Shown piece by piece: positions 23,217-64,000 of a DNA stretch of 64,000 bases. The stretch is taken from contig CAZDCG010000002.1 of assembly GCA_964503955.1 (NCBI GenBank), positions 269,047 to 333,046 on the forward strand, given 5' to 3'. The notes below the pieces were generated by a model. The model had not been told where the DNA came from. It saw only the letters and a list, made by a program, of their open reading frames with translations, and did no database searches. Positions within the stretch are counted from its first letter, which is position 1. Each line of letters opens with the position of its first letter. Both the position numbers and the translations under genes were made by a program. Origin of the DNA: an uncultured Gammaproteobacteria bacterium. GTDB taxonomy: Bacteria > Patescibacteriota > Patescibacteriia > VMEV01 > CAYQCH01.

Positions 23217-24177
23217 ATCGGCGTTTGATCATGACAGGCAATGCTTTCAGCGTTTGCGGCAGAATGGATAATGTATCGCGTTCGAACAGAGCGAGGTAAA
23301 AGAGTTTTATCAATTCATATGGAAAGACGAGCGGTAGTGCGACCAGCGGCACCTGTTTGAAAAGAAAGAAGAGATGATTACGATACGAATTTAATGAAAT
23401 ATACTGCGCCCGTTGCTTGCGATGCGCACGCATGGTCGCGAGGTTCGCTTCCGCACGGCCTGTTCTGCGATGATAGGCAATCGCTCCAGCTTCAAACCAG
23501 GCTGAATACCCGCGTGATTGAAGTCTTCCGGCTAAATCAACGTCTTCTTTGTACATGAAAAAATGCTCGTCAAAATATTCCGGATACGATCGGTCTGTTC
23601 TTGGATGGGCGATGTTCTCAAGCGCTGCTTTTTTATAGAGGGCGCAAGCGCCGCTAATCCCCCAAACGGGGCCGGAATGCAGATTGCATTCAGACAGCGG
23701 CTTGCCGGCATATTGGTCGATGACTTTGTAGTACGGAAGCTTTATCATGCCGGCTGAATCGATTTCAGGATTTTCGTTTTTTGAGCGAAGCAGCAATGGG
23801 CCAATAGAGGCAACTGAACCGTCCGCTGTACGCGACATGAGTTTTTCAAGCATATCCGCTTCAAGCACGGCATCTTGATTCAGCACCAGCACCCAAGATG
23901 ATTTTGCTGCGTGAATAGCTTTATTGTGCGCTCGGCCAAACCCTTCATTGCCGGTATTTTTGATAAGAGAAACGGACGGAAATCCTTCCTCAATTATGGC
24001 AATGGTATGATCGGCCGACGCATTGTCAACGATGATAATTTCATCCGGTTGCCGTGTTTGCGCGTACAATGAATCAAGACATGGCTTGATATCATGCTCG
24101 GCATTATAGGTGACGATGGTGACAGCAACAGTCGGCTTCATATCATTTGCGTACTTTTTCCGTAACCCAAAATCCAA
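23209..24177 (-). CDS. Family-2 glycosyltransferase
   Basis: VAVTIVTYNAEHDIKPCLDSL...EIIIVDNASAD, GT-A fold. Confidence 0.75.
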   Translation of the reverse strand: MDFGLRKKYANDMKPTVAVTIVTYNAEHDIKPCLDSLYAQTRQPDEIIIVDNASADHTIAIIEEGFPSVSLIKNTGNEGFGRAHNKAIHAAKSSWVLVLNQDAVLEADMLEKLMSRTADGSVASIGPLLLRSKNENPEIDSAGMIKLPYYKVIDQYAGKPLSECNLHSGPVWGISGACALYKKAALENIAHPRTDRSYPEYFDEHFFMYKEDVDLAGRLQSRGYSAWFEAGAIAYHRRTGRAEANLATMRAHRKQRAQYISLNSYRNHLFFLFKQVPLVALPLVFPYELIKLFYLALFERDTLSILPQTLKALPVMIKRRYV

Positions 24178-28603: not shown

Positions 28604-31600
28604 CTAGCTTCTGCGCAATCCGATATCTCCTTTCACGCTCTCCCCTTCTTTCTGAATACTGATTTGCGTAGGAAGCGGCTGGCGATCCTTTGGCGCTTCA
28701 ACGATTTCCGATTGAGTGAATCCCGGTTTTTCAGCCTTTAATACATATTTCCCCGGTTCAGGAGCAAAACGGAAACGTCCTTGATAATCCGACAGCCTTG
28801 ATGCAACCACTTTGCCAAAAGCCGGATCAATCAGCTGGAGATTGACCAGCGGCAATGGCGCATTGGTGGCGATATCGTAGACAGTTCCCCAGGCTTTTTC
28901 AGGCTTATGACGCAAGGTAAGCTGAAGCATGAAAAGAAGGATATACGCGGCCGACAAAATCCAGTTGACGGGATTTTCCGGAACAGCTGCCACGACCATC
29001 ACAGAAGCAAGCGATCCAACAAAGAGTAATGGCAAGGCAAGGAATTGACCGGCTTTCTGCAATGAGAGCCAAAGTTTCTTGAAGAGGCTGGCTGTCTGCC
29101 ATTTTTGCTCTGCATTAACAGGATCCATTGGCAGGTCAGGTACAACCAATTCCGTTGTTTGGTCGGTGATATCAACACCTCCCATGTAAACATGATCATA
29201 CTGCCCATCCTGACTGGTTCCAGTAACAATCGACGACGGGAAGGTATATTGCGGCTTTTTCACTTCAATGCGGTATGAACCAGGTTCAAGCAAAGCATCG
29301 TATTTGCCTTGTTTGTCCGTCACAAAGGTGGAAACGAGACGTTCTGAAGCACCGTCTTTCTTGTATAAGCGGACAATCGCCAAAGCAAGCGGATCTTTCG
29401 TGATAGCATCATACGCGATGCCGAAGAATCGCTGCTGCCCTTTCTTCCTTCTTCCCACTAGACCAACAAGATACGTGATCGCGTGATAGAGCAAGGTTGG
29501 CAAGTACGGAAGGTATCCCCACAAAGGAGCCGACGAGATGACAACCACGGGAGCGGCAACGGCTAATGTCTGCTGGATTTCTTCTTCTCGTTGTTCAACA
29601 ACGCGCTGCACTTCCTTGGTCACTGTCTTGATAGCCGTAACAAGCTCGCTTGAAGAAACAACGGTTTCAAAATCCGTTTGTACCTCTCCTTCTTTGGCGA
29701 TTGTCAGGGTGAATTCTCCTACTTGCACGCGCTCACTGCGCAAATCACCGGCCACGGCAATCGCCTCTACGCTGACACGCAAAGGTTCACCCGGTTGAGC
29801 TCCAAGCTGCTGAGCGCTGACATAAGCCTGCCAGACTCCGTTTGTATCGCTGACGGCCGATACGCTGATGAGTCCGTTGAAAATGAGGGTCACAACAGAA
29901 TTCGGCTCGCTTGTGCTTCCTGAGAATGCGATGCCTTCTTCCTGCTGATCAGCAAGTCCGTCAATCAGGACGGTCCGCGAGTCGTCTGTAACTTCAATAT
30001 TGAAGCTTTGACCATCGGTTGAAACGGTGGTTTGCGCGGGGCTTGGCATTGACGGACTTTGCGGCTCCGGCTGATTCAAAGAATCAATAAGCTGCTGCAA
30101 ATATTGCGGTGAAAGGCCGTCCTCTGTTGGTTCTGGGATTGGCCGAGGAAGTACCTCAGGCTGAGATTCAGGTTCCTGATCTGGTTCCGGTTCGTTCTTC
30201 GGCGTGATCAATGAAGCAATATCGACCTCAAAGTCTGCAATATTGCTGTAAATGGGTTCGGTGATTCCGGCATGATTCACGCTTGCCTGCAGCTGGATAA
30301 GAGGATTTGCCTGGGCAAGGACAGCGCTCGCTTCACTTGCCGAGAAATCATGCAAGAGAGCTGCGGTATCCAAGGCAATCTCAAATCGGATTGCGTGAGA
30401 TTGTCCCGGCTCAAGCATTGCCCAAGAGGCAGAGATGCCGTTTTGATTCGCCAGTCCGGGATCAGCTGCACCGGTTTCAGAACTTAAAGTACCATCGACT
30501 CTCAATGAACGGGGCGTATAGCTCACGTATTTAGGCAATGGAACATTTAGAATCACCTGATGAGCGTTCTTTGCGCCAGCATTACGAACGGAAGCTTCAA
30601 CAAGAATGCTCTGATGCGGCACAACAATGCCAGGTAGCTCATTTTCTGAAAGCGTCATCAAACGAATAGTCGGCAAGACGACGATCTCATCAGCCGACAA
30701 GGCTGGAATATGGATCATGCTGCTCCAGTCCGTGATCACGCCGTCAGCATTTCTGGCTCGCACACGCACTGAATACTCTTGGTCACCTTCAAGATTGCTA
30801 AAGGTATGGCTTGTCGTCTGAATCCAGTCTGATAATTGTGCTTGTGTCTGGCCGAGTACCGATACAAGCTCGAATTGAATAGCGCTTTGATTTGTCGTCA
30901 GATTGTTTATTGCTTCAACAACGGAAACCTCTACATTTGTATCCGTGCGAGAAGTTACTATCGGTGTTGGCTCAGGCATCCAAGTATAAACGTCAGGATA
31001 TACTCCGCTAGGAGTTCCCATGGATGATCCCAGATACGCAGCGATCTTGCGACCAGATATGAGTGTGTTGTGCCCCAATCCTTCTTCAGTTAATTGACGG
31101 GCCTGTGGCGAAGCAATCGTCGCAATGATTCGATTTTGAGCATCAAGCAGGTGAAACCCCTCGTGATTTGATCCCGCATAACTCCATTCATATTGCACGC
31201 GGTCATGGCTCAGCACGGTTGCCTCACCAAGATTCGGAATGTTCAAAGACTGGTGTTGAATGACCTGAGCTGGTGTCCCCTGACTCGATGAAGGTGGCGT
31301 TGCTCCATCTGGATAGTAAATTCGCGTTATGTATCCGTCTTCAGCGGACGTGGAAGCGATCTGATCACTGAACGGAGTTCCGGTTTGTGAAAGGGATGGA
31401 TATGCAGCTGATTCCAGATCTGAGTCGATTGTCTCTGAAGCGAAATAAATATTGTCACCTTCGATGATAAGCGAAGAGGCTACCTGCGCATCGCCAATTC
31501 GCGTTCCGTAAACCAAATCGGAACTTCCATTGCCATCTAGACTGAAACGGAGCAAACCAAATCCATCCTGATTGATATTGTTGCTGTAAGCACCGGCTGT

Positions 31601-34600
31601 AATTGGGAAGGTCGCATCGATTACTCTCAGCATGTACAAATCATCATTTCTTAAGAAGGCGGAGCTGCAGTTGCCTCCGTAGGAGCCATACACAAGATCA
31701 GCCGCGCCATTTCCGCCCGGATCGAGAACAAACATGTAACCATCGTCATCCGAAGTTGATTTATACGCGCCAGCCGTGATTGTCATGTCTCCGGAACCAT
31801 TGCTTCCACATCCGTAGATGTGCCCGGTAGATTCATGATGAATTACCGCCATAACAACCTCCTGATCGTTCCCCCCCATAAAGGTCGAATAGAGAAGGTC
31901 TGATGATCCGTTCCCGGAAGGATCCAGAACAGAAACAACCCCTTCGGTCCCAAACCCGGCTTTGACGGTATCAAACGCGCCAACGGTAACAGGATACGAA
32001 CCAGTATCTGAATACCCCGCCAGGTAGACAATGCCGTCATGGACATCAATACTTCTTAAAGCTTCAAATCCGCCTCCGCCCAAATATGTGGAGTATAAGA
32101 GATCATTTGCGCCGTTTCCGGCCAGATCAAGAACCATCACATAGAAGTCGATGCTGCCGTTTTGAGTAGTATCATAAGCTCCAGCCGTAGTGGGAAGATT
32201 CAATTGTGCAGGGCCGACTGCATACACAAGACCGTTTTCCACTCGAATTTCATCTCCTCCGATGATCCCGCGAGGCATAAGCCTTGTTGAATACTCCAAA
32301 ACAGATGCGTCGTTGTTGAAACGAAGGATAAATGCACCCGCATCCGCTGTGTTATCGAACGGAACTCCGCCTCCGTCCGCAATATATGGAATATCTGTTG
32401 AATGAGTCTCTCCAATGAGATAAATCTTGTCATCAGCAAAATCAAGAGAATTCAAGAGTGTTGTAGCATTTCCACCAAAGTAAGTTGCAAACTGCAAATC
32501 TCCGGCTCCGTTGCCATCAAGACTGAAGGCAGCGACATAAGAGTGGTCCGTACTATCGAACGTCTCATCATAAACTCCGGCAGTAACTGGAAAATCTACT
32601 GAGTCCGTTGATCCTGCTACGTAGACAATTCCATTCTCAACATCAAAACCGTTGACGGAATCACCCGCGCTTCCTCCAAAATAGGTTGAATAGTTTAGAT
32701 AAGGGGCGCCAGAATCCTGGATAAAACTTCCCATCGTCGTCCAATCAGATTGCGTTGTGCCGTTGTCATTTCGCGCGCACCAGTACTTTATTCCGTTCGA
32801 CAACGTGCTTACTCGCAAATACGTTATTGCATTCTTCGTGTTTGTGGCAGAGCTTGTCCCAGAGGCTTCTATATTTACATTTGCAAGACAATCCGCCGCG
32901 CTTCCACTGGAAACACGGAATTGCGTCGTACCCGTGAGCACCGAGTGAGTATAGTTAGACGCTAATATCACTACCCCTGCGCGAGTGGCCCCTTCATCTG
33001 GATAAACACGCGTCGGGGCTTCGGGAGGAACGGTCGCCGGGTCTAGTTCCGAATCAACCTCAAAGGAGATGAAAAAGGCTTCTGTTCCGCCATTGGCAAC
33101 AACGTCATAGGCATCACCACCGGTTGCAAAGGCAACAAAATCAGCAGAGTTGGTAATACCAGCCAGGGACAAATTTACCCCGTCATAATGCAGGGAATAA
33201 ACGGAATCTGCGCCCTCCCCGTCTAATTGAGTCGAAAAAGTCAGATCGTTTTGCCCATTGCCGGACGGATCCAGGATAGCCAAGAAGGCAGCGGAATCCG
33301 TGATGGATTCACCCGTCGATGTTACAAAATCGGAGCTGTTGGTTTCCCCTGCAATCGCAATGGAACCGGACGGTAATACCACGATTCCGTACGCGGCTTC
33401 ATCGGCGTCTCCGCCTATGAACGTTGAATACACTAAATCGTCGCCGCCATTGGAAGAAGGATCGATGATCACCGCGACTGCTTCAGAATTGCCGTTAAAT
33501 GATGAGCTGTACGCACCGGCTGTCGTTGGAAAGTTAGTTGAGTTGGTTAAGCCGGCAATATAGGCGATTCCTTGATCCACCTCCAGATCAAGCATGTCTT
33601 CATTGTCATCGCCTCCTAAGAAAGTTGAATATACCAGATCCCCCGACCCGTTGCCCGAAGGATCAATAATGGTAAGCGTGTCATCAAAAGGCCCGCCGCC
33701 ATAGGTGGTCTGCATCGCCTGGGCAGTCGTCGGAAAATTTGAATCGGTCGTGTAGCCAAGAATATACGCGTTGCCAGAATCAACCTCCACATCAACCGCG
33801 TCACTGGAACCGGTGCCAGTTCCAACGATGGTAGCGTACTGCAAATCAGCTGCTCCGTTACCATCAGGACTTATCAGGGCCAAAAAGATATCCGTCATCC
33901 CGTTTGCAGACTCATCATAGGCGCCGGATGTCGTCGGAAAGTCACTGCTTAGAGTAGAACCGGCGACGTAAATAATCCCACCGCCTACGTCAATTCCTCC
34001 AATATAATCGTCTTCTGCTAGCGTCCCCCCAATATACGTTGAATAGAGAAGATTCGAACCATCGGCCGCGAGACGGAATACAAATCCATCAAGAGCACCG
34101 GCATCGCTTGTAGAATCATATGCGCCAAGGCTTGTTGGAAAGTCGGCGGACGCGGTTGTACCGGCCGCGTAGACCTCGCCAGCAACAACTTTTATGCGAA
34201 GACTGCGGTGATCTCCAAAAGGTGATGCTGCATCCGTATCGGTACCGCCGATATACGTTGCATAGATCAAATCAGCATCCCCAGCCCCATCCGGCGAGAT
34301 TTTTGCGACGAACACATCGTTTGTACCGGCTAAAGATGTATCGTACGCCCCAAGTGTTGCGGGAAAATCAGCGGATGCTGTGCCGCCTGACACATAGATA
34401 TCTCCGCCCTCGACCGATATTGCGCTTGCCCAGTCATCATCCGAACCGCCTAAAAACGTTGAGTAGCTTACCCCGGCAGGGTGCAATAAATTTACCGTGA
34501 ACTCGCCCATTGAGGTCCAATCAGTCTGTTCCGTGCCATTGTCGTTGCGCGCGCACCAATAGTAGGTTTCACCATGAACAAGCCCGGAGGCTTCAAAGGT

Positions 34601-37600
34601 CGTTGGCTGATCCAATGATTCTGTGACGGCGCTTGTACCAAAATCAACAATATCAACACCGTTCACGCAATTAACCAACGAAGAGCTGCTGATTCTGTAT
34701 TCAGTGGTGCCCGTTTGAGCAGAATCTGTATACCAGGCGGAAAGGACAGGAGTTGATCTTGTGACCACAACCTGATCTTGCGGATAAATAATAAGCGGAT
34801 CCTGAAGCCCCTGCGCAGCGATGCGATACGCGACAAATTCACCTGTTGACGCGCGGTAGCCGGTTACATAGGCAAGGCTCGGGTCAATTGCGTCAATCGC
34901 ACTGTAAAACCCGGCCTCCGAATCGTCTCCATCAGGCTCGATATGAGTTGTGATATCCCAGGTATCACCGCCGTCTATCGAGAAAAAATATTGGAAGTCT
35001 AGATTGTTAGGAGCGGCTGCAAAGATATGGTCCGCGTCAGTCGCATCGATAGAAGGCCATTCAAAGAATCCCCCGGTACTGTCAATCACGCTGGTTTCCC
35101 ATGTCGCTCCTCCATCCGTTGTCTTCGCAAACATCAATGTTTGATCGGTATCATTTGTATAAACAGCATAAGCCGTAAGCTCGTCGATAACTTTGATCGC
35201 ATGTCCAAAACCGACATCTCCAACCGTATCAACATCGTTCAGAGTCCAGTTTGCGCCTCCATTGGTCGTTACAGCGGATTGGAGATCGCCATCCAAATCG
35301 TCACGATACAAAAGATAGATCGTGTTTTCATCAAATGCGTCGATCGCGTGCGGTGAGGTAATGTAGCCTGGCCCGACGGCGACCTCGGTTAAATCTCCGC
35401 CTGCATTTGTGGTAGACGTCACGTAAACCTGCCCATCCGCCTGTTTTGAATACGCAACAAAGAACGTATTGTCATCCACAACCGTAATGGCAGTATAGGA
35501 ATCAACATCATCGTCTTCATGTATGCCGATATAGGAGTCATCCGTTGTCCAAACCCAAACCTCGCTTAAAGGCCCGCCTCCGTCCCACGCATATGAAATA
35601 TAAGCAGTTCCGGAAGCAGTCGCGTCGATAGAGGTTGCGAAAACATCTGCATCAAAATCGAATTGATCCCAGGAGAATCCCCCGTTTTCAGAGAAGGCAA
35701 AGTATCCTTGACCGTTGTCTTCATCACGATAAGACGCGTAAAGATTATCCTCGTCGATCGCGACCATATCACTATCCGTCCCCGCGATATTGCCTCGTTG
35801 ATCAATGACAACTTCCGTCCAATTGCTTGTATCGATAGGGGTGGTATTTGTTTCATTCGACACGTCTCCCGTCCCAATCGCGTTTACCGCATAAACGACA
35901 AAGGTGTAATCGATGCCATTCACAAGGCCTGTTACGGTCGATTCCGGGATATCGCTGATACCGTCATCAAATACAGTGGCATTGCCCGGCCAGCCAGATG
36001 TTTCTCCGTATTCTATTACGTAATCTGTTATTGGTGATCCCCCGTCATTAGGCTCTGACCAGGTCAAGACTGCTTTACCGTTTCCAGGAGCGCCATCCAA
36101 ATCCGTGATAGCGGCGGGTGCGAATTGTCCTCCCATCCAGATTTCAAACGTTCCGGGCGCGCCCTCATGGATAGAAACCATGTCTAGCACACCATTTTTA
36201 TCCAAGTCCGCAAGCGCAGCATCAGTGCCGTGTTCTGCAACAGGAATCTGCCCTTTTGCGGAAAAATCAGGTGCCGCAGCAGAGTTGTTTAGTAAAATTT
36301 CATACCAACCATCGTTGAAACCGGGATTTGTGAATGCAACGATATCGGGATCATCGTCTCCATCAAGATCCCCTGATATGATCTCGCGGATACCATCGTT
36401 AAAAATGACATCAGGCTGAGACCAGGTAAATGAAGCACTCCCGTCGTTGGTACCAAAACTCAATGCGTCATTGGCAATGAGAAAATGATTGAAATCATCA
36501 GCGAGCAGGAACTGGTCCACAACAACATGATCCGTTGTTCCGAAATTGGCATCCGTTGAGTTGAAAGCAAAATTCGCGCTCCCGTCATTAAGCAAATATC
36601 CAACAGCATCGGTTGTCGCTCCCCCTTCGATAATGAGGTCAAGATCGTAGTCATTATCAAGATCAGCGGCATAGATCTCCAAAGAGGATGCCGTTACGGC
36701 ATAAGCCGCATCATATACCAGCTGGCTGCCATTATTGAGAAAGACAATGACATTTCCTGAAAAATACTGACTCACGGCAAAATCCATGAGCCCGTCTCCA
36801 TTGAAATCACCGGCAGCAACATCACCGAATGATACGTTATTCCCGCCCAGATCCACGGTCATCTCTGAATTGAAGTTCCCGCTGCCATCGTTCAAATGAA
36901 TTTCAATATCATTGCTTAAGTGAACGAAGATGATATCTAAATAGTCATCATCATTCATTGGAGCCAGTGAGATGTTGCGACCCTGAAGCCCCGGCTCTGA
37001 TATCACGATATCCACGGGAGAAGCAAAACCGCCAAGCCCGTCGCCAAGCCAGCGTTCCAGCCCTCCATTCATGTTAGAGATCACAAGGTCGAGATTGCCG
37101 TCTCCGTTCAAATCTCCTAATTTTACGTCGCTTGGACGCACGCCAAGACTTTGATCATTGTTGAACAATGTAGAGGAAGCATGTCCGAAATTCGCAAAAC
37201 CATTAGGCACGTTGACGGTATAGGTGAAGATATACGGGCCGTCTAACGGATCTCCCGTGGCGGCGGACAGGATCGCATTCGTAAGGGTGACGCTTACTTT
37301 TTCCCCTGCAAAATCAAATCCATCAGTTGGAGTAAACTGAACGGTTGTGTCTCCATTGCTGAACGCAAAATTTCCCAAGCTTCTGCGTCCCGTCTGGTTT
37401 CCAATCACCACAAAACTATCAGCCGTAATACTTGCCTGATCGACTGCTTCAGAAAAATCAACCGTGATGGGTGAATTGAAAGCAACACCGTTCGCGTGCA
37501 ATGACGGGGTGGTCGAAACAACAGATGGAATACCGGCGACAAAGACGGATGCCCTGACTCCAACTGCTTTATCGGATTGATATTGAGCAAGAAAGTATGA

Positions 37601-37660: not shown

Positions 37661-37765
37661 AGATCGCGGCCTTCAAAGATCATGCATTACAAATTCATTA
37701 TAGCAAATGGGAACAACTATTTATGCACAAATAGATGCGGTATAGACAAGATAGGCGTATCTGAA

Positions 37766-45478: not shown

Positions 45479-45539
45479 AGATATCCTGTCAACATCATGC
45501 GTTCATTGTAACAGACAGAGACCAGAGATCAACACGTGA

Positions 45540-53048: not shown

Positions 53049-53133
53049 AAGTTCGTGAGTGTAAAGTCAATTCTATACACAGATTATAGCATGGATGAGA
53101 AATACTCTCCGCTGACTTATCCCCTGAATATGC

Positions 53134-53160
53134 AAAAAAAGAGCAGCGATTTCGCTGCTC
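53134..53160 (-). terminator. Intrinsic terminator immediately 3' of giant gene 4: perfect 8-bp GC-rich stem (GAGCAGCG/CGCTGCTC), 4-nt loop, U7 tract on minus strand
   Basis: aaaaaaa gagcagcg attt cgctgctc read on the minus strand gives hairpin + UUUUUUU. Also A/T-flanked on plus, so it is bidirectional in form. Confidence 0.6.
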
Positions 53161-53167
53161 TTTTCTC

Positions 53168-56100: not shown

Positions 56101-59100
56101 CATATTCCTCTCCGGATCCGCCAAAGTAGGACGCATAAACCAAATCACAAGCTCCATTTCCCTCAGGCGCAAACCGGCCAGCGACATAATCGAAACTCCC
56201 GGCGTTTATGTCTTGGTATGCATTGTCAGTCACAGGAAATCCTGATTCATAACTACCGGAGAATACCAGCGTATCCCCATCCAACGTCATTTCCGTGCAC
56301 CAGCCGTCGCCGGCTCCGCCGAGGAAAGATCCATACACTAGATCATCAGCGCCGTTTCCCCCAAGCGTAAGCTGATAGATAAACATGTCTCCAGAGCCAT
56401 TATGCGTTTCATCAAACGATCCTGCGGTGGTGACAAATGCAGGGTCATAGGTCATGCCACATACGAAGAGATCGCCAGACGGGCTTTCTGCAACCACATC
56501 GTAGGCACCATCATAATCATTATCGCTGCCGACGATCGTTCCATACACAAGAGATGTAACATCGGTTCCGGTTGGATCGATTTTCAGGACGAACCCATCG
56601 GCATTCACGGTATCGACAGTCGTGTCGAAGGCTCCTGCCGTCAAAGCCGGAAAATCAGCGGAAGCGGTTTCCCCCGCGATATAGATATTTCCGTTGTCGT
56701 CAAAATTGATGCCGCTGATCAGATCGTTCCCACTGCCTCCCACATACGTGCTGTAAAGCAGAGATGCCATGCCAGTTTCATTCGTATCGATCTTCATGAT
56801 GAAACCGTCGTTATTGGCAAGATCTCCCGTGGAATCAAAAGCATTTCCTGTCAGAGGTAGATCTGCGGATGTTGTTCTCCCGGCCAGATACACAATGCCG
56901 TTGTCGTCGACACGCATGCTTTTCCAGCCCATTTCATCTTCCCCGCTTCCTCCGACATAGGTGCCGAAGAGGACTTCATCAAGATCCGCGTTGAGTTTGG
57001 CCAAATACACATCATCATTCCCTGAATACGTCATGTCAAAACCTGAAGTATTCGGGGTATGGGTTGCAAACACATCAGCGGAGCTTGTCGCGCCGGCGAT
57101 ATAGACGTTTCCTGATGCATCTACGCGTCCCGCACGGACTGGGTCATGATCTGAGCCCCCGAAATAGGTAGCGACTAAGACACTGCTTCCGTCTGCTGAC
57201 AATTTGGCCAGAATGCCATCTTGCATGCCAGATAAATCTTCTTGCAAACCGGCATCTGCAGGGAAATCCGCAGAAAAAGTCGTACCGATCATGATGATAT
57301 TGTCAGATGTATCAAGACCGATGCCTAACAGTTGGTCATTTGCGTTTCCGCCAAAATACGTGGCAAATCCATCATACCCATCTCCCATGGTGAACATAGC
57401 TTCTTCTGTTGAAAACGGACCTTCCGTGCCCTCGTCATCCCAGAACTTGATGCGCCAATAGTAGGTTGCCCCATCATCCGCAAGTGGTGTGCCTCCGTAG
57501 GTGATATCCGCGCTTCTCGCGCCGCTTGCGCAATCAGCCATTGCTGTTCCGGAAGCCCCTGAGTCCCAAAGCACCGAACTGAAATCGTTGTCGTTATCAA
57601 CTTGAATACGGTACTTATTGAGCGTATCTCCCACATTATCGTTACAAATCGCGCTGAAAGCGGGGGTGGGATGCAAAATCCCGGTTGGGTTTGCGGATCC
57701 TTGCTGAGCGTCGGTATCGTCTACGTATAAATCGGTCGGCTCTGAAGGAGACGTATTCGGCACCGCCATGGTAAATGCATTGGTAGATAACGGATCCTCG
57801 CTCCATACGCCGACCAACCCTTCATCATCCCAGAAACGAATACGCCAATAGTACGTGGTGCCGTCTAATAACAAAGGATCCCCGCCATAATGAATGTCCT
57901 GGCTGCGGCTTCCCGCAACGCAATCCGCCATAGCCGTACCAAGAGCGCCGCTGTCCCAGATGGTTGAACTAAAATCATTTTGATCATCCACCTGGATTTG
58001 GTAGAGGTTCATGATATCCCCAGGATTGCCGTCGCGGCAGATCGCGCTGAATGCCGGTGTCGTATCGGCAATTCCTGCGGGGTTTGAGGCGCCCGCCTGC
58101 GCTGAATCATTGTTGCTATAGAGATCGATAGGAGCTGACGGAGCAATATTCTCCGGAGCCAAAGCCAGCTTCACGAAATAGGCATCAGCCCCTCCTGACT
58201 TTGCAGACTGAAAGACACCGGCAGTTGATGGAAAATTCGGATCGTTGGTATTTCCTGTGATATAGAAATTTCCGGCATCGTCCAGAGCAACTCCCATGCC
58301 ATTATCTGTTCCAGTGCTACCAAAGTACGTTGAATAGATTAGATCATCAGCGCCTTGGCTGCCAGGATGAAGCTTAACAATGACAAGTGATAACGGATCA
58401 CTGGAAAAAGCGCCATCAGTGGTAGGGAATGCTAGGCTGTTTGATTTTCCTTGAAAATAGACAACACCGTCCGTATGCACACGAAGGTCAATACACCAGT
58501 CATTGTTGACATCTCCAATAAGTGTTCCATAGGAGAGATCAGCATTTCCGTTACCTGCGGTATTGAACTTCATCACGAAGGCATCCCCCGCTCCGCTCAA
58601 AGATGTAGCATAAGCACCTGCGGTCGTAGGAAAATCAGAAGAGTTTGTTTCTCCACAAGTGAATACATCTCCATCCGGCCCCATGGCAACCCCGTACGCA
58701 TAGTCCCATCCATTGCTTCCACCGATCATTGTGCTATAAGCCAGTGATGTGATGTTCGTCCCATTAGGATCGATCCGTATAAGAAATGCATCACAGTTTG
58801 AGTCGTCAACCGTTGTATCAAATGCCCCAGCGGTCGTTACGAAATCAGCTGAACAGGTATCTCCCGTTACGTAGACATGCCCGTTTTCATCAAAAACCGT
58901 GGTCCAGCTCTCATCAAAGCCTGATCCTCCAACGTAGGATGAATAGACCAAGGATGCCGCGCCAGACTGAGTCGTATCAATGATCGTGATAAATGCGTCC
59001 CCATTATATGATTCATCCGGCCCATCCCCTACGGTATCAAAAGCATTGGGTGTAAGCACAAAGTCTGATGAATATGTAATTCCTGTGATCGCCACGCGAC

Positions 59101-62100
59101 CATTTGTGGGGTGCACGGAAAGACCGCCAAACCACCAGAAGTCCTCATAGTCAGAACCACCGACATATGTCGTAAACAAAACAGTATCGATATCTTCATT
59201 TAGCTTGACGACATACACATCAGCCAAATCCGTGTCAGGAGTTGTATCAAATCCTTGAATCACTCCGGGATACTTGGTGGAGAATGTGTCGCTTGCATAA
59301 CTTGCTCCTCCAATATAGACATTTCCATTCTCATCAACAGCTCCATTTGATGGATAGTCATCCGAATTACCACCGAGATAGGTTGAAACAAGTGCGGTGC
59401 CTGCCGTAGAATCAAGTTTTGTGATAAAAATGATGTGATCCGAGCCGGGGTTCGTTGCCTGGATGGGATTTACCATCGGAAAATTAGTTGAACTGGTCCG
59501 CCCCATCACAACCGGGTTTCCATTCGTGTCAAATCCAATCGCATTGCCAATATCTTGACCAGAACCTCCTAAAAAAGTGCCGTAAGAAATAACCTCTACA
59601 AGATCAACCGTGAATGTGCCCATCGGGGTCCAATCCCCTGTAAGATCCTCATCGTCCCCCTGCGCGCACCATGCATAGGAATTCCCATCCACAAGGGCTC
59701 CACTGACAACGGTTGCATCTGTAAATGCACTCACGACCTGGCTGCTTCCTGAAAAAACGATATTGATATCATTCACGCAGTCTGTGGTTGTACCGCTTGA
59801 AACGCGAACATGGATTAAACCAGAATCCTTTGCGTCGAAGTCGCGGAAATTGGCAACCAGAGAAGGGGTGAGTGAAATTACATTCGCTCCGTTGCTGGGA
59901 GACACCAGAACGGGGGCGGATGGAGCCTCATTCTTTGTACTGGCCTTGATGATGATACCATCCCAACTGCCACCCCGATGAGTTGGCTGGATCACACCGC
60001 TGGTCGCCATCCCTCCGGAGTTGGTGGAACCGACGATATAAGCGACTTCATTATCATCAACAAAAAGTCCGCCACCGCTATCGTATCCATACCCTCCGCT
60101 CATAACATAAAAAGACGAAAAGATCAGATCACCATCAGAGCTCAGCTTTGTCAGAAGAATATCGGTGAATGCACGGGGCTTTGTCCAAATTGCATCAGCC
60201 GTCGTAGGAAAATCATCTGAACTGCTTGCCCCTACTGCGTAAATATTTCCTGATGCATCCAAGGTAACAGCACTAAAACTCTCATCTTCAGCTCCGCCAA
60301 CATACGTCGAGAAAAGCAGGGATCCCGCTCCGCTGCTATTTGTATTAAATTTAGCAATGAAGGCTTCTTGGCCCCCATTATATGTGTTGTCATACGCATT
60401 AACGGTTGGGAATCCCGATACGGTCGTATAGCCAGCAATCACAGCCTCGCCACTATCATTGGCCGCAATTCCGTATGCAAATGAAACCGAGGCCGTGTTC
60501 ACACCGAGGGCGGAAGAATACATTAAAGAAGAACCTGTAGAATCAAAACGAGCAATAAAAGCATCTGATGATGAATTTTCTGTTGCAGCCATGTAACGGC
60601 CTGCGGTGGTTGGAAATGTCGCGTCGCGGGTTTCTCCAGCAATATAAATCGTGTTGCTTGAATCAAGCGCAATGTCATACGCCGCATCAACTCCTTCGCC
60701 ACCCAGATAGGTCGCGAACAAAAGTGCAGATCCTGCCGAATTCATCTTGGCGACAAATACGTCCGAATCACCACCATTATAAGTACTGTCATAAACGCCT
60801 AAAGATATTGGAAAGTTCCCCCAAAGCATATCCTCGCTGGATCCTGTTGAACCCGTGATATAGATGCTGCCAGAATCATCAACGGCAACGGCACGTATTG
60901 TTTCAGGCAAATCGCCACCAAACGCCGTTGAAAAGGATAAAGAATTACCATCGGCAGACAATTTGGTAATGAAGCCGTCAGTGTTCAACGTGTCAGACGG
61001 TGTTGTATCATAAGCGCCTACCGTTGTGGGGAAATCTTGAGAATTCGTCCAGCCGCCAATGATGAGCTCACCGCTATCGAGAAGGACAATATCAAGTGCC
61101 AAATCACTTTTTGCACCCCCCAGATAGGTTGAATAGATGACCGGTGAAGTGGCCGTGGAATTGATTTTGACGACGAAGGCATCTCGGGAACCGCCAAAGG
61201 TTTCGTCATAATGTCCCGCGACAGAAAACCAGTTGGTGGAGTACGTTTCCCCTGCAATGTACGCATTCCCGTCATCATCCACTTGAACAGAATAAGCATA
61301 ATCATTCGCGTTTCCTCCAAGATAGGTGCTGTAGTAGACACGAGGATCAATGACGAGCTCATGAGCAGGGTCATAGCTTCCAAGTTTAAACCCGTAGCTT
61401 AAAATGCCGTTCAGCTGATATTCAACCTCAACAGGCACTTTCTCTCCGTTAATCATCTGATAAGCTTCAGGTTTTTTGATGCCTATATCGCCGAAGTCAG
61501 AAACAAGGGCCAAGGAACCGTCTTCGGCGATCCGTAAACGATCGATTCCTTCAAATGAAACACCGATGGGCGATGGATCAGCGTTGGGCGCGACATGGTA
61601 ATCGAATTTAAGAGCACCGTCTTTGCCTGAGTAGACGAGATCAATCCCTTCGTAGAGCTGATTGTATCGAATCCTTTCGTATGTCGGCACGTTCTTTTGC
61701 CACTTGGTGGGATCATTGCCAAGCAAATAATTTACGACCCCCGGCATCTGCGCTTCGCTTGTAATTTCGGAATTCTTATTCGCACCATTAAATACCTGTT
61801 TAATAGCAAGTGTTTCCACTTTTTCATCATCCCGATTCTCCGGCCTTTTTCGCCGAGGTTCACGCTCTATGTCCTCTTCCTCCTGAGAAATACGTCGCGT
61901 CAAGGCATACATGACATGGTCCGGCGCAAAAAAGATCGTTTGCCCCTGATTTTTGACCAAAAACTTCACTACCTCATCCACCTGTCCTCGATTCTCTTGA
62001 AAACTGAGCGAGAGCCCGCTCAAGAGCTGTTGAACCTGATCATCAGAAACAGGTGCCGCTTGTTTGTCGAAAGTCAGACGTTCACTTTTGTACAGATACC

Positions 62101-62182
62101 CAATCACAAAAACGATAGCCAAAATGACTATCGCCGCCAACCACGCGAAGATGTTTTTTCTGAAAAATCTGTGGGCTTTCAT
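53168..62182 (-). CDS. Giant surface protein 4 (3004 aa). Domain order: signal anchor, ENRGQ domain, SBBP-like repeats, tandem pair of FSAIC modules, SBBP-like repeats, poly-Gly hinge, FN3/DUF11-like mid-region (shared with gene 1), Ig-like, diverged C-terminal anchor
   Basis: The N-terminal 300 aa is about half identical to gene 2 by eye (LSFQENRGQVDEVVKFLV). Internal GGGGGGGGG run. The mid-region (HDRVQYEWGY...DWSNNV...LNNGALQARNVLLTVPLPPYLSY) is homologous to gene 1. The C-terminal TM/CarboxypepD_reg module is roughly 60% identical to the others by eye. Confidence 0.8.
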   Translation of the reverse strand: MKAHRFFRKNIFAWLAAIVILAIVFVIGYLYKSERLTFDKQAAPVSDDQVQQLLSGLSLSFQENRGQVDEVVKFLVKNQGQTIFFAPDHVMYALTRRISQEEEDIEREPRRKRPENRDDEKVETLAIKQVFNGANKNSEITSEAQMPGVVNYLLGNDPTKWQKNVPTYERIRYNQLYEGIDLVYSGKDGALKFDYHVAPNADPSPIGVSFEGIDRLRIAEDGSLALVSDFGDIGIKKPEAYQMINGEKVPVEVEYQLNGILSYGFKLGSYDPAHELVIDPRVYYSTYLGGNANDYAYSVQVDDDGNAYIAGETYSTNWFSVAGHYDETFGGSRDAFVVKINSTATSPVIYSTYLGGAKSDLALDIVLLDSGELIIGGWTNSQDFPTTVGAYDTTPSDTLNTDGFITKLSADGNSLSFSTAFGGDLPETIRAVAVDDSGSIYITGSTGSSEDMLWGNFPISLGVYDSTYNGGDSDVFVAKMNSAGSALLFATYLGGEGVDAAYDIALDSSNTIYIAGETRDATFPTTAGRYMAATENSSSDAFIARFDSTGSSLMYSSALGVNTASVSFAYGIAANDSGEAVIAGYTTVSGFPTVNAYDNTYNGGQEAFIAKFNTNSSGAGSLLFSTYVGGAEDESFSAVTLDASGNIYAVGASSSDDFPTTADAIWTKPRAFTDILLTKLSSDGDLIFSSFYVMSGGYGYDSGGGLFVDDNEVAYIVGSTNSGGMATSGVIQPTHRGGSWDGIIIKASTKNEAPSAPVLVSPSNGANVISLTPSLVANFRDFDAKDSGLIHVRVSSGTTTDCVNDINIVFSGSSQVVSAFTDATVVSGALVDGNSYAWCAQGDDEDLTGDWTPMGTFTVDLVEVISYGTFLGGSGQDIGNAIGFDTNGNPVVMGRTSSTNFPMVNPIQATNPGSDHIIFITKLDSTAGTALVSTYLGGNSDDYPSNGAVDENGNVYIGGASYASDTFSTKYPGVIQGFDTTPDTDLADVYVVKLNEDIDTVLFTTYVGGSDYEDFWWFGGLSVHPTNGRVAITGITYSSDFVLTPNAFDTVGDGPDESYNGDAFITIIDTTQSGAASLVYSSYVGGSGFDESWTTVFDENGHVYVTGDTCSADFVTTAGAFDTTVDDSNCDAFLIRIDPNGTNITSLAYSTMIGGSNGWDYAYGVAMGPDGDVFTCGETNSSDFPTTAGAYATSLSGAGDAFVMKFNTAGNGNADLSYGTLIGDVNNDWCIDLRVHTDGVVYFQGKSNSLAFPTTDGAFSSDPLSLVIVKLHPGSQGADDLIYSTYFGSTGTDNGMGVALDDAGNFYITGNTNDPNFPSTAGVFQSAKSGGADAYFVKLALAPENIAPSAPIDLYSNNDSAQAGASNPAGIADTTPAFSAICRDGNPGDIMNLYQIQVDDQNDFSSTIWDSGALGTAMADCVAGSRSQDIHYGGDPLLLDGTTYYWRIRFWDDEGLVGVWSEDPLSTNAFTMAVPNTSPSEPTDLYVDDTDAQQGSANPTGILHPTPAFSAICNDNVGDTLNKYRIQVDNDNDFSSVLWDSGASGTAMADCASGARSADITYGGTPLADDGATYYWRIKFWDDEGTEGPFSTEEAMFTMGDGYDGFATYFGGNANDQLLGIGLDTSDNIIMIGTTFSADFPADAGLQEDLSGMQDGILAKLSADGSSVLVATYFGGSDHDPVRAGRVDASGNVYIAGATSSADVFATHTPNTSGFDMTYSGNDDVYLAKLNADLDEVLFGTYVGGSGEDEMGWKSMRVDDNGIVYLAGRTTSADLPLTGNAFDSTGDLANNDGFIMKIDTNETGMASLLYSTYVGGSGNDLISGINFDDNGNIYIAGETASADFPALTAGAFDTTVDTVNADGFVLKIDPTGTDVTSLVYGTIVGSDNDYDGAYDVVAESPSGDLFVCGMTYDPAFVTTAGSFDETHNGSGDMFIYQLTLGGNGADDLVYGSFLGGAGDGWCTEMTLDGDTLVFSGSYESGFPVTDNAYQDINAGSFDYVAGRFAPEGNGACDLVYASYFGGSGEEYDQGATYVADTNVLYVAGETTSSDMPVSGGYFSSVAFGGNDGFGFSTEIPSSAGAGCGGGGGGGGGSSIQRIQTQSLSTPTIVSVRTTGHDRVQYEWGYSTTGHSGFYLLDQQQTILEIVNEAQVRTVVESGLPHNTLIEGRRVAAFVGSTRGTSSQTFPSVYTHMTSVTLTQISRVDDRIRVGVTEELNHLTSGQSAVQFELMPADSVSGSAIIASDWIQASTYVFENTDRDQAYYARVRARNYDGVETDWSNNVMISAQEFQAPIELLVDLQVTTADGRSISGPVNPNELLYVKAHILNNGALQARNVLLTVPLPPYLSYIPGSLRVNGVRNSEIPDGDAGQFTQETVAGIWPTLDFGFGHTLSFILAFDTQSMLRDFLDDDSQIDENRLPKEPLRAPVVTREDLFQLLQNISVESGDTSEIREALAAAGPQLQLQAIASEDSTTEPTYSNIVVAEPELNSFVTTEDVVEEPVAPPTKEEVVVIEDILQPDKPSQPTQPSPQVGNTDVTTGPGTFELETQGGTAFLGVSGNAVTNGDGVEFSGTTTEPFTTVTIIINDTVTMIVTSDASGQWRTFVSADDIGLLPGQSRQIRVEAIAAKGELRSEQVVVGLVNVTRLTEDVITTDFTDVDVKTTGFIGAVQQVQQVIEEQQQTIQTSLSVTAPVVLVASAPLWGYLPYVPTLLYHFFTYLIGLLGRKKKQDRRFYGTVYDSITKQPLALAIIRIYNKETNKLVSTQVSDKQGRYEALLEPANYRLEVTKPTYTFPSQIVTSEIGGNYHAYSNEQGIIVQEQDLVIPDVPLDPVNAQRQWQLSSGLKKLWMLLQKVGNYLAVPVLFIGSLASILVVITVPDNWINWLLAIVYVGMLSAQLELRVHAQKAWGVVYDLATNAVLPLATVQLIDPQYGKVVTSRLTDYQGRYSFMPEPGKYVIKANKPGYEQVREVVEAPDDQHHPIPPEIEVQKTNERITGDVPMTSRG

Positions 62183-62244
62183 GCTTGTATTTTATCTAAA
62201 TCATTCCCGATTTGAAAGAACAGATATGCACAGCTTTGAATGCG

Positions 62245-64000
62245 CTATGCCTGCCGTAACCCAAGATCACCCTTGATACTTTCCCCCTCTCTTTCAATGA
62301 TGATTTGCGATGGCAGCGTCTGACGATCTTTTGGAGCTTCTATCGTCTCTGATTGCTGAAATCCTGGTTTTTCCGCCTTCAACACATATTTTCCAGGCTC
62401 AGGAGCGAATCGGAACCGGCCCTGGTAATCGGATAGCCTTGAAGCGACGACTTTGCCGAATGCCGGATCAATCAGCTGAAGATTCACCAGAGGCAAAGGC
62501 GCATTGGTGACGATATCGTAAACAATCCCCCAAGCCTTTTCAGGCTTTTGACGGAGTTTCAGCTGCAACAAGAACATCAGCACGTAAGCGACGGACAAAA
62601 TCCAGTTGATTGGATTCTCAGGGACTGCCGCCACAACAACAACTGACGCAAGCGAACCCACAAAAAGCAATGGAAGCGCGAGGAAATGGCCTGCTTTCTG
62701 CAATGTGAGCCACAATTTCTTTAAGATATTTGCTGTCTGCCACTTCTGTTCCGCATTGATTGGGTCCATTGGCAAGTCCGGAACAATCAATTCAGTTGTT
62801 TGGTCCGTAATCTCAATGCCACCCTGGTAGACATGGTCATACTGTCCGTCTTGTGAGATACCTGACAGAATCGATGACGGGAAAGTATATTCTGGCTTCT
62901 TGACCTCAATGCGGTATGAACCAGGTTCGAGAAGCGCATCATACTTTCCTTGTTTATCCGTCACAAACGTAGAAACGAGACGTTCAGATTCACCATCTTT
63001 CTTGTAGAGACGGATGATTGCCAAGGCGAGCGGATCTTTTGTAATCGCATCATAAGCCACACCAAAGAAGCGCTGCTGGCCTTTCTTGCGTCTTCCAATC
63101 AAGCCGACAAGATATGTAATCGCGTGATACAGCAAGGTTGGCAGGTATGGGAGATACCCCCATAAAGGAGCGGATGAGATGACCACCACGGGAGCGGCAA
63201 CCGTCAATGTTTGCTGGATTTGCTCCTCATTGCGTTCAACCGTTTTCACAAGCTCTTTGACCGCAAGACGAACGGCAGTAAGGGCCTGACTTGATGAGAC
63301 AATAGATGAAAATTCGGCAAGGACAGAACCGTCTGCAGCATGGGAGAGAACAAAATCTCCGACATGGACAATTTCGCTTCGCGTGTCATTGACAGAAGCC
63401 ACGGCATCGATTCTGACCGTTTGATCCATTCCAAGGTCTATGCCAAGCTGTTCAGCGCTGACATAAGTTTGCCAGAACCCTGAGGCATCTGTACGAACAA
63501 TAACAGAAACACCATTATTGAAGATTAATGTCATAACCGTGTCCGGCTGAGATGACCGGCCAATAAACTCAATCTGATCTCCTGTAACACGAGCGGATCC
63601 TGTCACTTCAAAAATCGTTCTACGGCCATTATCGGCCTCGCTCACGGCAATAGCGAAACTCTTTCCGTCGCTTGAGCTTTGTGTTGACACCTCCCGGCCC
63701 TGATCAAGCCCTGCCCCACCATTTCCAATCATTCCCCCTATTTCGCTGGTTTCTTCGCCAATGAGTTGATGAATTCCATCAATTTGGCTTGTTTCATCTG
63801 CCGTTGGCGGCAAAACAGGTTCTTGATCAGCGGGCAGCATCACCGGCGGTTCTGGAGCCACAGGGAACGATGACAGGTCTACAAATAATATTTTTTGGGA
63901 TATCACAACTGACTCGGTCTCCTGCGCGCTAACACTTGCCTGTAAGATGTACGCTGCAATTTCGCTCTCGCCATCCTGCAATTGAGTTTGTTTCAGATCA
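62245..64000 (-). CDS. Giant surface protein 5, 5'-partial (frame open to window end; ORF-track start at 63981 is an in-frame TTG, not the real start). Ig-like + shared C-terminal 3-TM/CarboxypepD_reg anchor
   Basis: The reverse-complement frame stays open through 64000 (...DLKQTQLQDGESEIA...). No signal peptide in the visible part. The C-terminal 470 aa is highly similar to genes 1-3 (e.g. WGIVYDIVTNAPLPLVNLQLIDPAFGKVVASRLSDYQGRFRFAPEPGKYVLKAEKPGF). Confidence 0.75.
   Translation of the reverse strand, partial: DLKQTQLQDGESEIAAYILQASVSAQETESVVISQKILFVDLSSFPVAPEPPVMLPADQEPVLPPTADETSQIDGIHQLIGEETSEIGGMIGNGGAGLDQGREVSTQSSSDGKSFAIAVSEADNGRRTIFEVTGSARVTGDQIEFIGRSSQPDTVMTLIFNNGVSVIVRTDASGFWQTYVSAEQLGIDLGMDQTVRIDAVASVNDTRSEIVHVGDFVLSHAADGSVLAEFSSIVSSSQALTAVRLAVKELVKTVERNEEQIQQTLTVAAPVVVISSAPLWGYLPYLPTLLYHAITYLVGLIGRRKKGQQRFFGVAYDAITKDPLALAIIRLYKKDGESERLVSTFVTDKQGKYDALLEPGSYRIEVKKPEYTFPSSILSGISQDGQYDHVYQGGIEITDQTTELIVPDLPMDPINAEQKWQTANILKKLWLTLQKAGHFLALPLLFVGSLASVVVVAAVPENPINWILSVAYVLMFLLQLKLRQKPEKAWGIVYDIVTNAPLPLVNLQLIDPAFGKVVASRLSDYQGRFRFAPEPGKYVLKAEKPGFQQSETIEAPKDRQTLPSQIIIEREGESIKGDLGLRQA

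Follow-up and report, generated by a model that had tools for sequence, protein, structure and literature searches.

Giant surface proteins are already a known phenomenon in bacteria that belong to the candidate phyla radiation (CPR; PMC8080830, PMC11809585). Vampirococcus lugosii is described as having ten giant membrane-localised proteins of 1392–4163 aa (PMC8080830) and Patescibacterium danicum as having proteins of over 4900 aa (PMC11809585), and such CPR giants have been proposed to act as host-attachment factors (PMC8080830, PMC11809585, PMC11665869). Here we describe five consecutive giant genes, G1–G5, in a 64,000-nt stretch of contig CAZDCG010000002.1 (the window), each of which ends in the same ~470-aa C-terminal module. 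The comparison with the published CPR giants is close in several respects, as both sets come from the same group and consist of very large predicted surface proteins with interaction domains, for which host recognition and attachment have been proposed and, in the earlier cases, rapid evolution by recombination suggested (PMC8080830, PMC11809585). In the portions of those papers that describe them, however, the published proteins carry FhaB, DUF2341 and other domain sets and no common C-terminal module, which sets them apart from G1–G5.

The five genes form a tandem array of paralogs on one strand, as follows:

28604..37660, minus strand: G1, giant surface protein gene, 3018 aa, complete (open reading frame (ORF) list, translation; Pfam Big_5, FG-GAP_3, fn3)
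37766..45478, minus strand: G2, giant surface protein gene, 2570 aa, complete (ORF list, translation; Pfam DUF7948, SBBP x7, Ig_Rha78A_N)
45540..53048, minus strand: G3, giant surface protein gene, 2502 aa, complete (ORF list, translation; Pfam only Ig_Rha78A_N, 14 blades by repeat hidden Markov model (HMM))
53168..62182, minus strand: G4, giant surface protein gene, 3004 aa, complete (ORF list, translation; Pfam DUF7948, SBBP, Ig_Rha78A_N x2, CarboxypepD_reg x2)
62245..64000, minus strand: G5, 3' part of a fifth paralog, last 584 aa (translation; CarboxypepD_reg x2)

G1–G4 are intact ORFs in the assembled sequence, while the frame of G5 runs from its stop at 62245 to the window end; because the array lies on the minus strand, G5 lacks its N-terminal part, which is beyond the window end, and not its C-terminus. 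An original prediction, made from the letters of this sequence and a list of its ORFs, had reported five same-strand genes occupying about 55% of the window, and these claims hold, with a measured share of 55.3%. As open frames of 7.5–9 kb are beyond chance and have homologues elsewhere, we regard G1–G4 as real coding genes. The GC content of the array is uniform with that of its flanks. The window contains no tRNA genes or Rfam matches, and promoter and terminator scans of it gave no signals above chance.

Similarity among the paralogs is unevenly distributed. In all-against-all BLASTP comparisons the C-terminal ~470–550 aa are 47–73% identical among G1–G5, and the ectodomains ~30–38%. The step is sharpest between G2 and G3, where protein identity is ~30% through the propellers and jumps to 91–100% over the last ~680 aa, corresponding to a single tract of DNA:

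45543..47600, minus strand: G3 3' part, 90.8% identical over 2056 nt to G2 37769-39830 (blastn)

This abrupt change indicates gene conversion or a recent partial duplication, and the array as a whole appears to keep its anchor ends homogenised while its heads diverge. The tract is also the sole place where short-read assembly could err, and together with the 78–83% DNA identity of the other 3' ends it could have misled an assembler into collapsing similar repeats, leaving pseudogenes or a chimera. We consider this highly improbable, since the array has four uninterrupted 7.5–9 kb frames, each complete giant has both a signal-like N-terminus and a complete module, the composition is uniform with the flanks, and independent metagenome-assembled genomes (MAGs) hold the same kind of tandem array.

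The common C-terminal module had been part of the original prediction, and all five proteins do align over its whole length:

28607..30016, minus strand: G1 module, aa 2549-3018 (alignment)
37769..39178, minus strand: G2 module, aa 2101-2570, the copy modelled with AlphaFold2 (model predicted local distance difference test score (pLDDT) 84.7)
45543..46952, minus strand: G3 module, aa 2033-2502 (alignment)
53171..54580, minus strand: G4 module, aa 2535-3004, the most divergent copy, 47-49% identical to the others (alignment)
62248..63657, minus strand: G5 module, last 470 aa, 63-73% identical to the G1-G3 modules (alignment)

At its N-terminal end the module opens with an immunoglobulin-like (Ig) domain and a helical linker, which lead into a marginal helix pair and a polybasic stretch; a transthyretin-like sandwich comes next, then a helical hairpin of strong hydrophobicity, and a second sandwich closes the module. 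We numbered the four hydrophobic helices 1 to 4 in this order. In G2 these elements lie at the following positions:

38621..38725, minus strand: first helix pair, AAPVVVISSAPLWGYL - PYLP - TLLYHAITYLVGLVG, of marginal hydrophobicity (equivalents on the minus strand: G1 29453-29557, G3 46389-46493, G4 54014-54118, G5 63094-63198)
38597..38620, minus strand: polybasic stretch RRKKGQQR, directly after the second helix (equivalents on the minus strand: G1 29429-29452, G3 46365-46388, G4 53990-54013, G5 63070-63093)
38282..38596, minus strand: first CarboxypepD_reg / transthyretin-like sandwich
38138..38212, minus strand: hydrophobic helix FLALPLLFVGSLASVVVVAAV and PENP turn, followed by helix INWILSAAYVLMFLLQLKL to ~38081 (hydropathy; pLDDT 94-98)
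37769..38062, minus strand: second CarboxypepD_reg / transthyretin-like sandwich, to the C-terminus

By hydropathy and in the structural model, FLALPLLFVGSLASVVVVAAV-PENP-INWILSAAYVLMFLLQLKL is the predicted main membrane hairpin. The model was obtained by running AlphaFold2 on the last 470 aa of G2 with a 40-sequence alignment, and it divides, in its own residue numbering, into the following parts:

14-115: membrane-proximal Ig-like sandwich
123-159: long helix, the linker into AAPVVVISSAP (pLDDT 55-66)
161-164: short helical turn in the LWGY-PYLP region
167-190: helix comprising TLLYHAITYLVGLVG plus RRKK
196-297: sandwich, first CarboxypepD_reg domain
309-342: amphipathic helix that continues as FLALPLLFVGSLASVVVVAAV (pLDDT reaching 98)
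between 342 and 347: PENP turn of four residues
347-366: helix INWILSAAYVLMFLLQLKL (pLDDT up to 98)
375-467: sandwich, second CarboxypepD_reg domain

The two sandwiches are duplicates of each other, are transthyretin-like or CnaB-like by structure comparison, and match CarboxypepD_reg (PF13620 / PF13715) above the gathering thresholds of 32.3 / 32.2 bits. The membrane-proximal Ig domain gives a weak Ca_tandemer-like signal that is below the cut-off (E 3e-5 to 9e-4). The check suggested with the original prediction, a model of the last 470 aa compared by Foldseek, yielded a confident model and no solved structure resembling the whole module (best TM-score normalised to the query <=0.18); a PDB sequence search with the module gave no significant match, and no Pfam or NCBIfam model covers its helices or its whole length. 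Because the C-terminus is here the conserved and not the variable part, we rejected a polymorphic toxin or contact-dependent inhibition system.

We then applied the established positive-inside rule to the module flanks, counting Lys and Arg (K+R) per 15 aa in 110 family members. The mean K+R was 4.75 in the 15 aa after helix 2, 3.12 in the 15 aa before helix 3 and 3.26 in the 15 aa after helix 4, against 0.05 in the turn between helices 1 and 2 and 0.15 in the turn between helices 3 and 4. The columns of the polybasic stretch hold K or R in 50–99% of members, and the segment preceding helix 1 is acidic. Hydrophobicity across the family is robust in helices 3 and 4 and marginal in helices 1 and 2 (median Kyte-Doolittle 1.78 and 1.41 for the latter two); in distant members E, Q or R occurs within helix 2, and some C-terminal tails are Lys-rich. 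By the positive-inside rule these flank counts are best fitted by cytoplasmic sandwiches, and we weighted a cytoplasmic against an all-outside placement at about 60:40.

These features suggest that G1–G5 are Sec-exported, membrane-riveted, adhesin-like fibrils with diversified heads and cytoplasmic sandwiches, a reading to which, taken as a whole, we assign a probability of about 0.55. Each giant (pI ~4) would be exported via Sec through its N-terminal signal or anchor, and its acidic Pro/Glu linker would cross the wall. The marginal first helix pair would make one net membrane crossing, ended by the polybasic stretch acting as a stop-transfer signal, which would put the first transthyretin-like sandwich on the cytoplasmic face. 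Helices 3 and 4 would then pass through the membrane and back as a tight hydrophobic hairpin with its turn outside, leaving the second sandwich likewise cytoplasmic. Two folded domains and three membrane passes could together form a rivet that resists extraction of a long fibril under load. The divergent heads and the propellers would most likely bind host or partner cell surfaces, with the array supplying several binding specificities and recombination keeping the anchor ends alike. Such a role would agree with the proposals made for other giant CPR proteins (PMC8080830, PMC11809585, PMC11665869).

Several observations weigh against this proposal. In characterised proteins, folds of the transthyretin-like, CarboxypepD_reg and CnaB types almost always lie outside the cytoplasm, and all structural neighbours found are extracellular or lumenal. 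AlphaFold2 draws the first region as helix-break-helix, and analogy with the second unit allows a true hairpin there, with everything outside. Beta-propellers and Ig domains are moreover generic, so that adhesion is just one possible use, and no conserved partner gene was found beside the giant arrays.

The first of these points lead to a topology in which each helix pair would be a true hairpin inserted from the outer face and the two sandwiches would sit on the outer surface of the cytoplasmic membrane. Much as in a wall-binding module, the basic surfaces of the sandwiches could there attach to peptidoglycan, anionic wall polymers or lipid head groups. This arrangement draws further support from the position of the sandwiches, which are duplicates and each start 3–8 residues after a helix, and from the pairing of a basic module with an acidic ectodomain, which equally suits anionic-polymer binding. 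It would, however, break the positive-inside rule at three flanks in 110 members, with ~11 K+R outside versus 0.2 inside, and would need translocation of the polybasic stretch, which is unfavourable. The weak hydrophobicity of helix 2 in most members, and its charged residues in distant ones, also count against it. We hold the all-outside arrangement to be a tentative but serious alternative, with odds short of even. In either topology, the sequences suggest that the module holds a long acidic fibril on a monoderm cell by its cytoplasmic membrane, with no need of sortase.

The best relatives of the LysRS encoded in the window are 72% identical, and all the named ones belong to Parcubacteria, Pacebacteria, Paceibacterota, Uhrbacteria or the 'Patescibacteria group', in line with the uncultivated lineage of the original prediction. 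Judged from its genes, the host is an uncultivated Patescibacteria (CPR; Parcubacteria) bacterium, a monoderm with Gram-positive-type peptidoglycan. Since the named relatives of the module and of the window LysRS are all Patescibacteria, we judged the 'uncultured Gammaproteobacteria' label on the three MAGs that hold the window-related loci L001-L005 (CAYGRO01, CAYHTI01, CAYQCH01) unreliable and probably wrong; these MAGs encode giants with the module of Patescibacteria type. With a Gram-positive-type envelope, outer-membrane secretion routes are not expected.

Searches for known sorting and anchoring signals agree with this expectation. The original prediction had claimed that none was present, and Pfam and NCBIfam scans together with motif searches bear this out, as LPXTG, RTX (repeats-in-toxin), type 9 secretion system (T9SS), autotransporter and S-layer homology (SLH) signals were absent from the giants. 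No T9SS C-terminal domain, autotransporter barrel, SLH, PEP-CTERM or PGF-CTERM family matched the five proteins at E<=0.01, and a terminal PEP or PGF motif was likewise absent. Strings resembling LPxT[GAN] are confined to mid-protein positions (e.g. LPLTG, G4 aa 1775) with no helix after them, so that no terminal sortase signal was found. Single GGxGxD strings are scattered inside propeller blades with no RTX family match, and the window has no ABC, MFP or TolC genes of a type 1 secretion system (T1SS).

Among described anchoring designs, the closest likeness is to the sortase-anchored LPXTG adhesins (SdrD, Cna-type pilins, Bap), which share with the giants a signal, a head, an Ig/CnaB-like stalk, a Pro/charge-rich wall-spanning segment and a helix followed by basic residues; the module sandwiches, too, resemble SdrD B, CnaB and SpaA folds. 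Unlike these adhesins, the giants have no LPXTG before a terminal helix and continue for ~280 residues (two domains and a hairpin) after the helix-plus-basic element, which argues for a membrane anchor in place of a covalent link to the wall. Staphylococcus aureus Ebh and Mycoplasma mobile Gli349 and Gli521 are also giant surface fibrils that depend on transmembrane segments, not on sortase, for their attachment; the gli genes are likewise tandem giants, but the repeat types and anchors of the Ebh and Gli proteins differ from those of G1–G5. RTX or type 1-secreted adhesins (MpIBP, LapA, SiiE) resemble the giants in being long, acidic and built of repeats with Ig-like extenders, and they are among the structural neighbours; they nevertheless need an outer membrane and a T1SS, whereas the giants belong to a monoderm host and have neither tandem RTX nonapeptides, a C-terminal secretion signal nor T1SS genes. 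The CarboxypepD_reg/transthyretin-like domains of carboxypeptidase D, NOMO and the N-terminal extensions of SusC/TonB-dependent transporters differ from the module sandwiches in being soluble, extracytoplasmic and not interleaved with membrane hairpins.

At the other end of the proteins, G1–G4 each begin with a basic and hydrophobic segment, so that the signal or anchor of the original prediction is present in all four complete proteins, the N-terminus of G5 being outside the window. Together with the module, these signals support the predicted character of the giants as exported, membrane-anchored surface proteins. G1 alone carries a lipobox-like VLLAC19 in its signal MRKYFALTASLFIVVLLAC (window 37604-37660, minus strand, aa 1-19); by eye this start fits the lipobox pattern [LVI][ASTVIL][GAS]C after a basic, hydrophobic signal. 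With such a signal, G1 may be lipid-modified N-terminally and thus membrane-anchored at both ends.

Between the two ends, each complete protein has a variable head, predicted SBBP propellers, an Ig-like stalk and an acidic linker, in that order. The heads are of three kinds:

44651..45319, minus strand: DUF7948 head of G2 (Pfam E 3e-65)
61343-62002, minus strand: DUF7948 head of G4 (Pfam E 2e-63)
35843..37528, minus strand: G1 head with Big_5, FG-GAP_3 repeats and fn3 (Pfam)
50949..52871, minus strand: G3 head, a Cys-rich subdomain (10 Cys, aa 69-152), then ~540 aa without family match

DUF7948 (PF25778, threshold 27 bits) is matched at 220.7 bits in G2 and 214.9 bits in G4, over profile positions 1–213 of 214 in both, and is absent by Pfam from G1 and G3. 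An AlphaFold2 model of the G3 head (aa 25–600; three-sequence alignment) was unusable at pLDDT 42, and PDB sequence searches with the G3 head, the stalk and DUF7948 found nothing significant.

Pfam places SBBP (PF06739; ~38-aa motif, gathering threshold 20.5 bits) in G2 (143.6 bits, 7 stretches) and G4 (136.7 bits, 6 stretches) only, as with DUF7948, and lists no SBBP match for G1 or G3. When seeded with a single blade of G2, a repeat HMM settled on a consensus of SBBP type with a period of 67–70 aa and found the same consensus in all four complete proteins, with 14 blades in G1, 20 in G2, 14 in G3 and 21 in G4. The blades stand in uninterrupted runs, grouped 7+7 in G1, 6(+1)+14 in G2, 7+7 in G3 and 7+7+7 in G4:

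33059..34468, minus strand: G1 propeller 1, 7 blades, aa 1065-1534 (repeat HMM)
31319..32698, minus strand: G1 propeller 2, 7 blades, aa 1655-2114 (repeat HMM)
43274..44644, minus strand: G2 propeller 1, 6 detected SBBP blades and one gap (repeat HMM, Pfam SBBP)
40031..42910, minus strand: G2 propellers 2 and 3, 14 consecutive SBBP blades (repeat HMM)
49527..50924, minus strand: G3 propeller 1, 7 blades, aa 709-1174 (repeat HMM)
47784..49169, minus strand: G3 propeller 2, 7 blades, aa 1294-1755 (repeat HMM)
59945..61336, minus strand: G4 propeller 1, 7 blades (repeat HMM)
58166..59590, minus strand: G4 propeller 2, 7 blades (repeat HMM)
55970..57370, minus strand: G4 propeller 3, 7 blades (repeat HMM)

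Since the blades come in groups of seven, and runs of 7 or 14 fit closed propellers, each complete giant is predicted to hold two or three seven-bladed SBBP beta-propellers. The same blade motif, and the arrangement of seven blades to a propeller that is predicted for the giants, are found in Leptospira LipL53-type SBBP lipoproteins (NF047494), which the lipobox-like signal of G1 also recalls; those proteins, however, have a single propeller, ~470 aa and no C-terminal module, and the score obtained here, 116 bits, lies far under the equivalog cut-off of 400.

The propellers are followed by a stalk of one or two Ig_Rha78A_N-like domains and then by the low-complexity linker, with the following parts located in individual giants:

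30041..31243, minus strand: conserved stalk region of G1, aa 2140-2540 (weak fn3/Ig/DUF11 signals)
54563-55969, minus strand: equivalent stalk region of G4
39209..39631, minus strand: acidic Gln/Pro/Glu-rich low-complexity linker of G2, aa ~1950-2090 (sequence)
46974-47381, minus strand: corresponding linker of G3

The ~400-aa stalk region of G1 and G4 is conserved in giants of other genomes, and the acidic Pro/Glu linker could be a wall-spanning segment. The ectodomains have a pI of ~4.05 and Cys pairs ~38 aa apart, and the last 285 aa are Cys-free with a pI of 8.5–9.25. Of the ectodomain repeats claimed originally, SBBP blades are thus borne out in all four complete proteins, as are Ig-like domains, and by Pfam FG-GAP_3, fn3 and also Big_5 are confined to G1; BNR is reduced to a sub-threshold match in G1 and DUF11 to weak signals (E 0.001–0.03).

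Surface proteins that are this acidic, seem built for abundance and combine a membrane anchor with a linker able to span the wall might also suit a structural envelope or S-layer-like coat, a protective or spacing layer in which the module would be the lattice anchor. We consider such a coat unlikely, because five strongly diverged paralogs with different heads suit diversified binding better than one self-assembling lattice protein, the giants showed neither an SLH nor another S-layer domain, and the module also occurs on many small, unrelated passengers.

This last point emerged from the distribution of the module. A word-indexed protein search returned only 7 and 6 module relatives and suggested rarity, an impression corrected by an exhaustive profile search of 1.84 billion cluster representatives, which gave 5343 matches at E<=0.001 and 969 at E<=1e-30. 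Member statistics were based on 155 family sequences and the module profile A1, with a near-full match defined as profile positions <=20 to >=290 and a C-terminal one as ending within 60 aa of the C-terminus. A near-full module was present in 109/155 sequences and stood at the very C-terminus in 94 of these 109, in proteins of 316–3603 aa with passengers of 120–3300 aa. Among 94 members with both an initial Met and a full module, 69 have an N-terminal signal. The short members P0005 and P0006 (~480 aa) consist of a signal, a small domain and the module only; given these, and the C-terminal position of the module on passengers of such varied size, the module is by its sequence portable and attachable to any exported passenger. 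Seven distant members (P0096, P0111, P0065, P0129, P0134, P0073, P0144) have hydrophilic low-complexity tails after the second sandwich, several of them ending in K[FVL]G; the tail of P0073 is Lys-rich, and two Cys repeats with the pattern C[ND]EQGGC..WVEK occur in P0144.

All members with an organism name are Patescibacteria (Parcubacteria MBI4121997/8, which are adjacent genes, Uhrbacteria MBI4262473, Buchananbacteria PIS05119 and Patescibacteria HLD28114), and their annotation reads either hypothetical or 'carboxypeptidase regulatory-like domain-containing'. Related MAGs also contain tandem arrays of module-bearing giants:

L001: two complete giants (2575 and 2476 aa) and the start of a third large ORF, with a head resembling that of G3
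L004: two tandem giants
L006: three verified giants and a fourth, cut gene

The window and these related arrays share no flank synteny and no conserved accessory, secretion or sortase gene. As almost all of 69 more distant metagenomic loci hold one module gene, of 300–2400 aa, the giant array is, on sequence comparison, a lineage-specific expansion of a broad family. The original prediction had proposed an undescribed family, and this stands in part: the module has no curated family, and we found no description of it, of DUF7948 or of Parcubacteria giant adhesins in the literature searched, but the module is widespread in Patescibacteria (969 clusters) and its members are already public. The combined design of propeller stacks and module appears in no curated family and nowhere in the literature searched.

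The distant loci also bear on whether the module could be a signalling device. Its passenger would sense contact, and its helices would then either communicate with an intramembrane-sensing histidine kinase or undergo cleavage by a site-2 protease, with the sandwiches freed or moved as a result. In at least 12 loci of distant relatives (L029, L041, L047, L049, L051, L052, L056, L057, L061, L063, L065 and others) a gene for a ~215-aa Peptidase_M50 (site-2 protease-like) protein is followed directly, after a gap of 0–101 bp, by a same-strand module gene of ~570–900 aa, as in L047 (Peptidase_M50 1023-1667, module gene 1673-3145). The module gene at these loci lies directly upstream of rpsL-rpsG-fusA, often with a metallo-beta-lactamase (MBL)-fold gene further upstream. 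At other loci a membrane histidine kinase (HisKA + HATPase_c) with no evident sensor domain starts 4–9 bp after the module gene (L012:10982-12351, also L014, L016 and L048), with a response regulator next in L012, L014, L016 and L018; in L011 and L018 the histidine-kinase match lies immediately upstream of the module gene and touches it. That the module is far more conserved than the passengers would also fit a signalling role. There are, however, no M50 or kinase neighbours at the giant arrays in the window, L001, L003, L004 and L006, the synteny beside rpsL-rpsG-fusA may be the inherited gene order of one clade, and no catalytic or signalling motif was seen in the module, so that we regard signalling as distinctly unlikely. 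A broader version of this idea, in which the module would be a Patescibacteria-specific general-purpose device that couples passenger contact to the cell interior and not a passive anchor, strikes us as speculative and rather unlikely; the coupling would be mechanical or pass through a site-2 protease or an intramembrane-sensing kinase, for surface proteins of any size with cytoplasmic sandwiches.

The remaining 28 kb of the window is a dense single-strand run of housekeeping genes. Those for wall and shape are FemAB, a Mur ligase, PBP2, MreC and two full-length MreB paralogs (13586-14641 and 19518-20543, minus strand) that lie 5 kb apart; adding MreC, PBP2 and an unannotated ORF of 182 aa where MreD would be expected gives a complete rod-shape set in an ultra-small bacterium. 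Information processing is represented by SerRS, LysRS, GreA, RRF, DNA polymerase III delta-prime and UvrC, and the window also encodes a class II aminoacyl-tRNA synthetase with a tRNA-synt_2b core and an HGTP anticodon-binding domain. An alpha/beta-hydrolase ORF overlaps the 3' end of SerRS by 92 nt (5872-5963) with the listed starts, and its true start is probably further downstream. Other genes encode an RseP-type M50 protease, a cyclophilin, three GT2 glycosyltransferases, a DUF4012 protein and a separate 340-aa BNR/Asp-box, Sortilin-Vps10-like propeller protein (17633-18655, minus strand, between the DNA polymerase III delta-prime and RRF genes), the only clear BNR protein of the window. 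The DUF4012 and GT2 genes (20533-25672, minus strand) lie ~3 kb downstream of the array, separated from it by UvrC, the cyclophilin and a small ORF, and might glycosylate wall polymers or surface proteins.

Patescibacteria make up a large share of bacterial diversity. Those in culture live fixed to the cells of a host, but little is understood of the means by which they recognise and grip it. The locus offers one concrete plan, found repeatedly, for the largest surface proteins of the group, and it brings to light a conserved membrane module of hundreds of protein clusters that is absent from domain databases. If the module is only an anchor, its recognition would still be a useful annotation, though no surprise. 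If instead it couples passenger contact to the cell interior, it would be a bacterial counterpart of integrin-like receptors and the main surface-display system of the group. As a general display route, the module would offer a handle for cataloguing the surface proteins of lineages not yet in culture, a target for labelling or blocking attachment and a case in which the idea of transthyretin-like domains in the cytoplasm can be tested.

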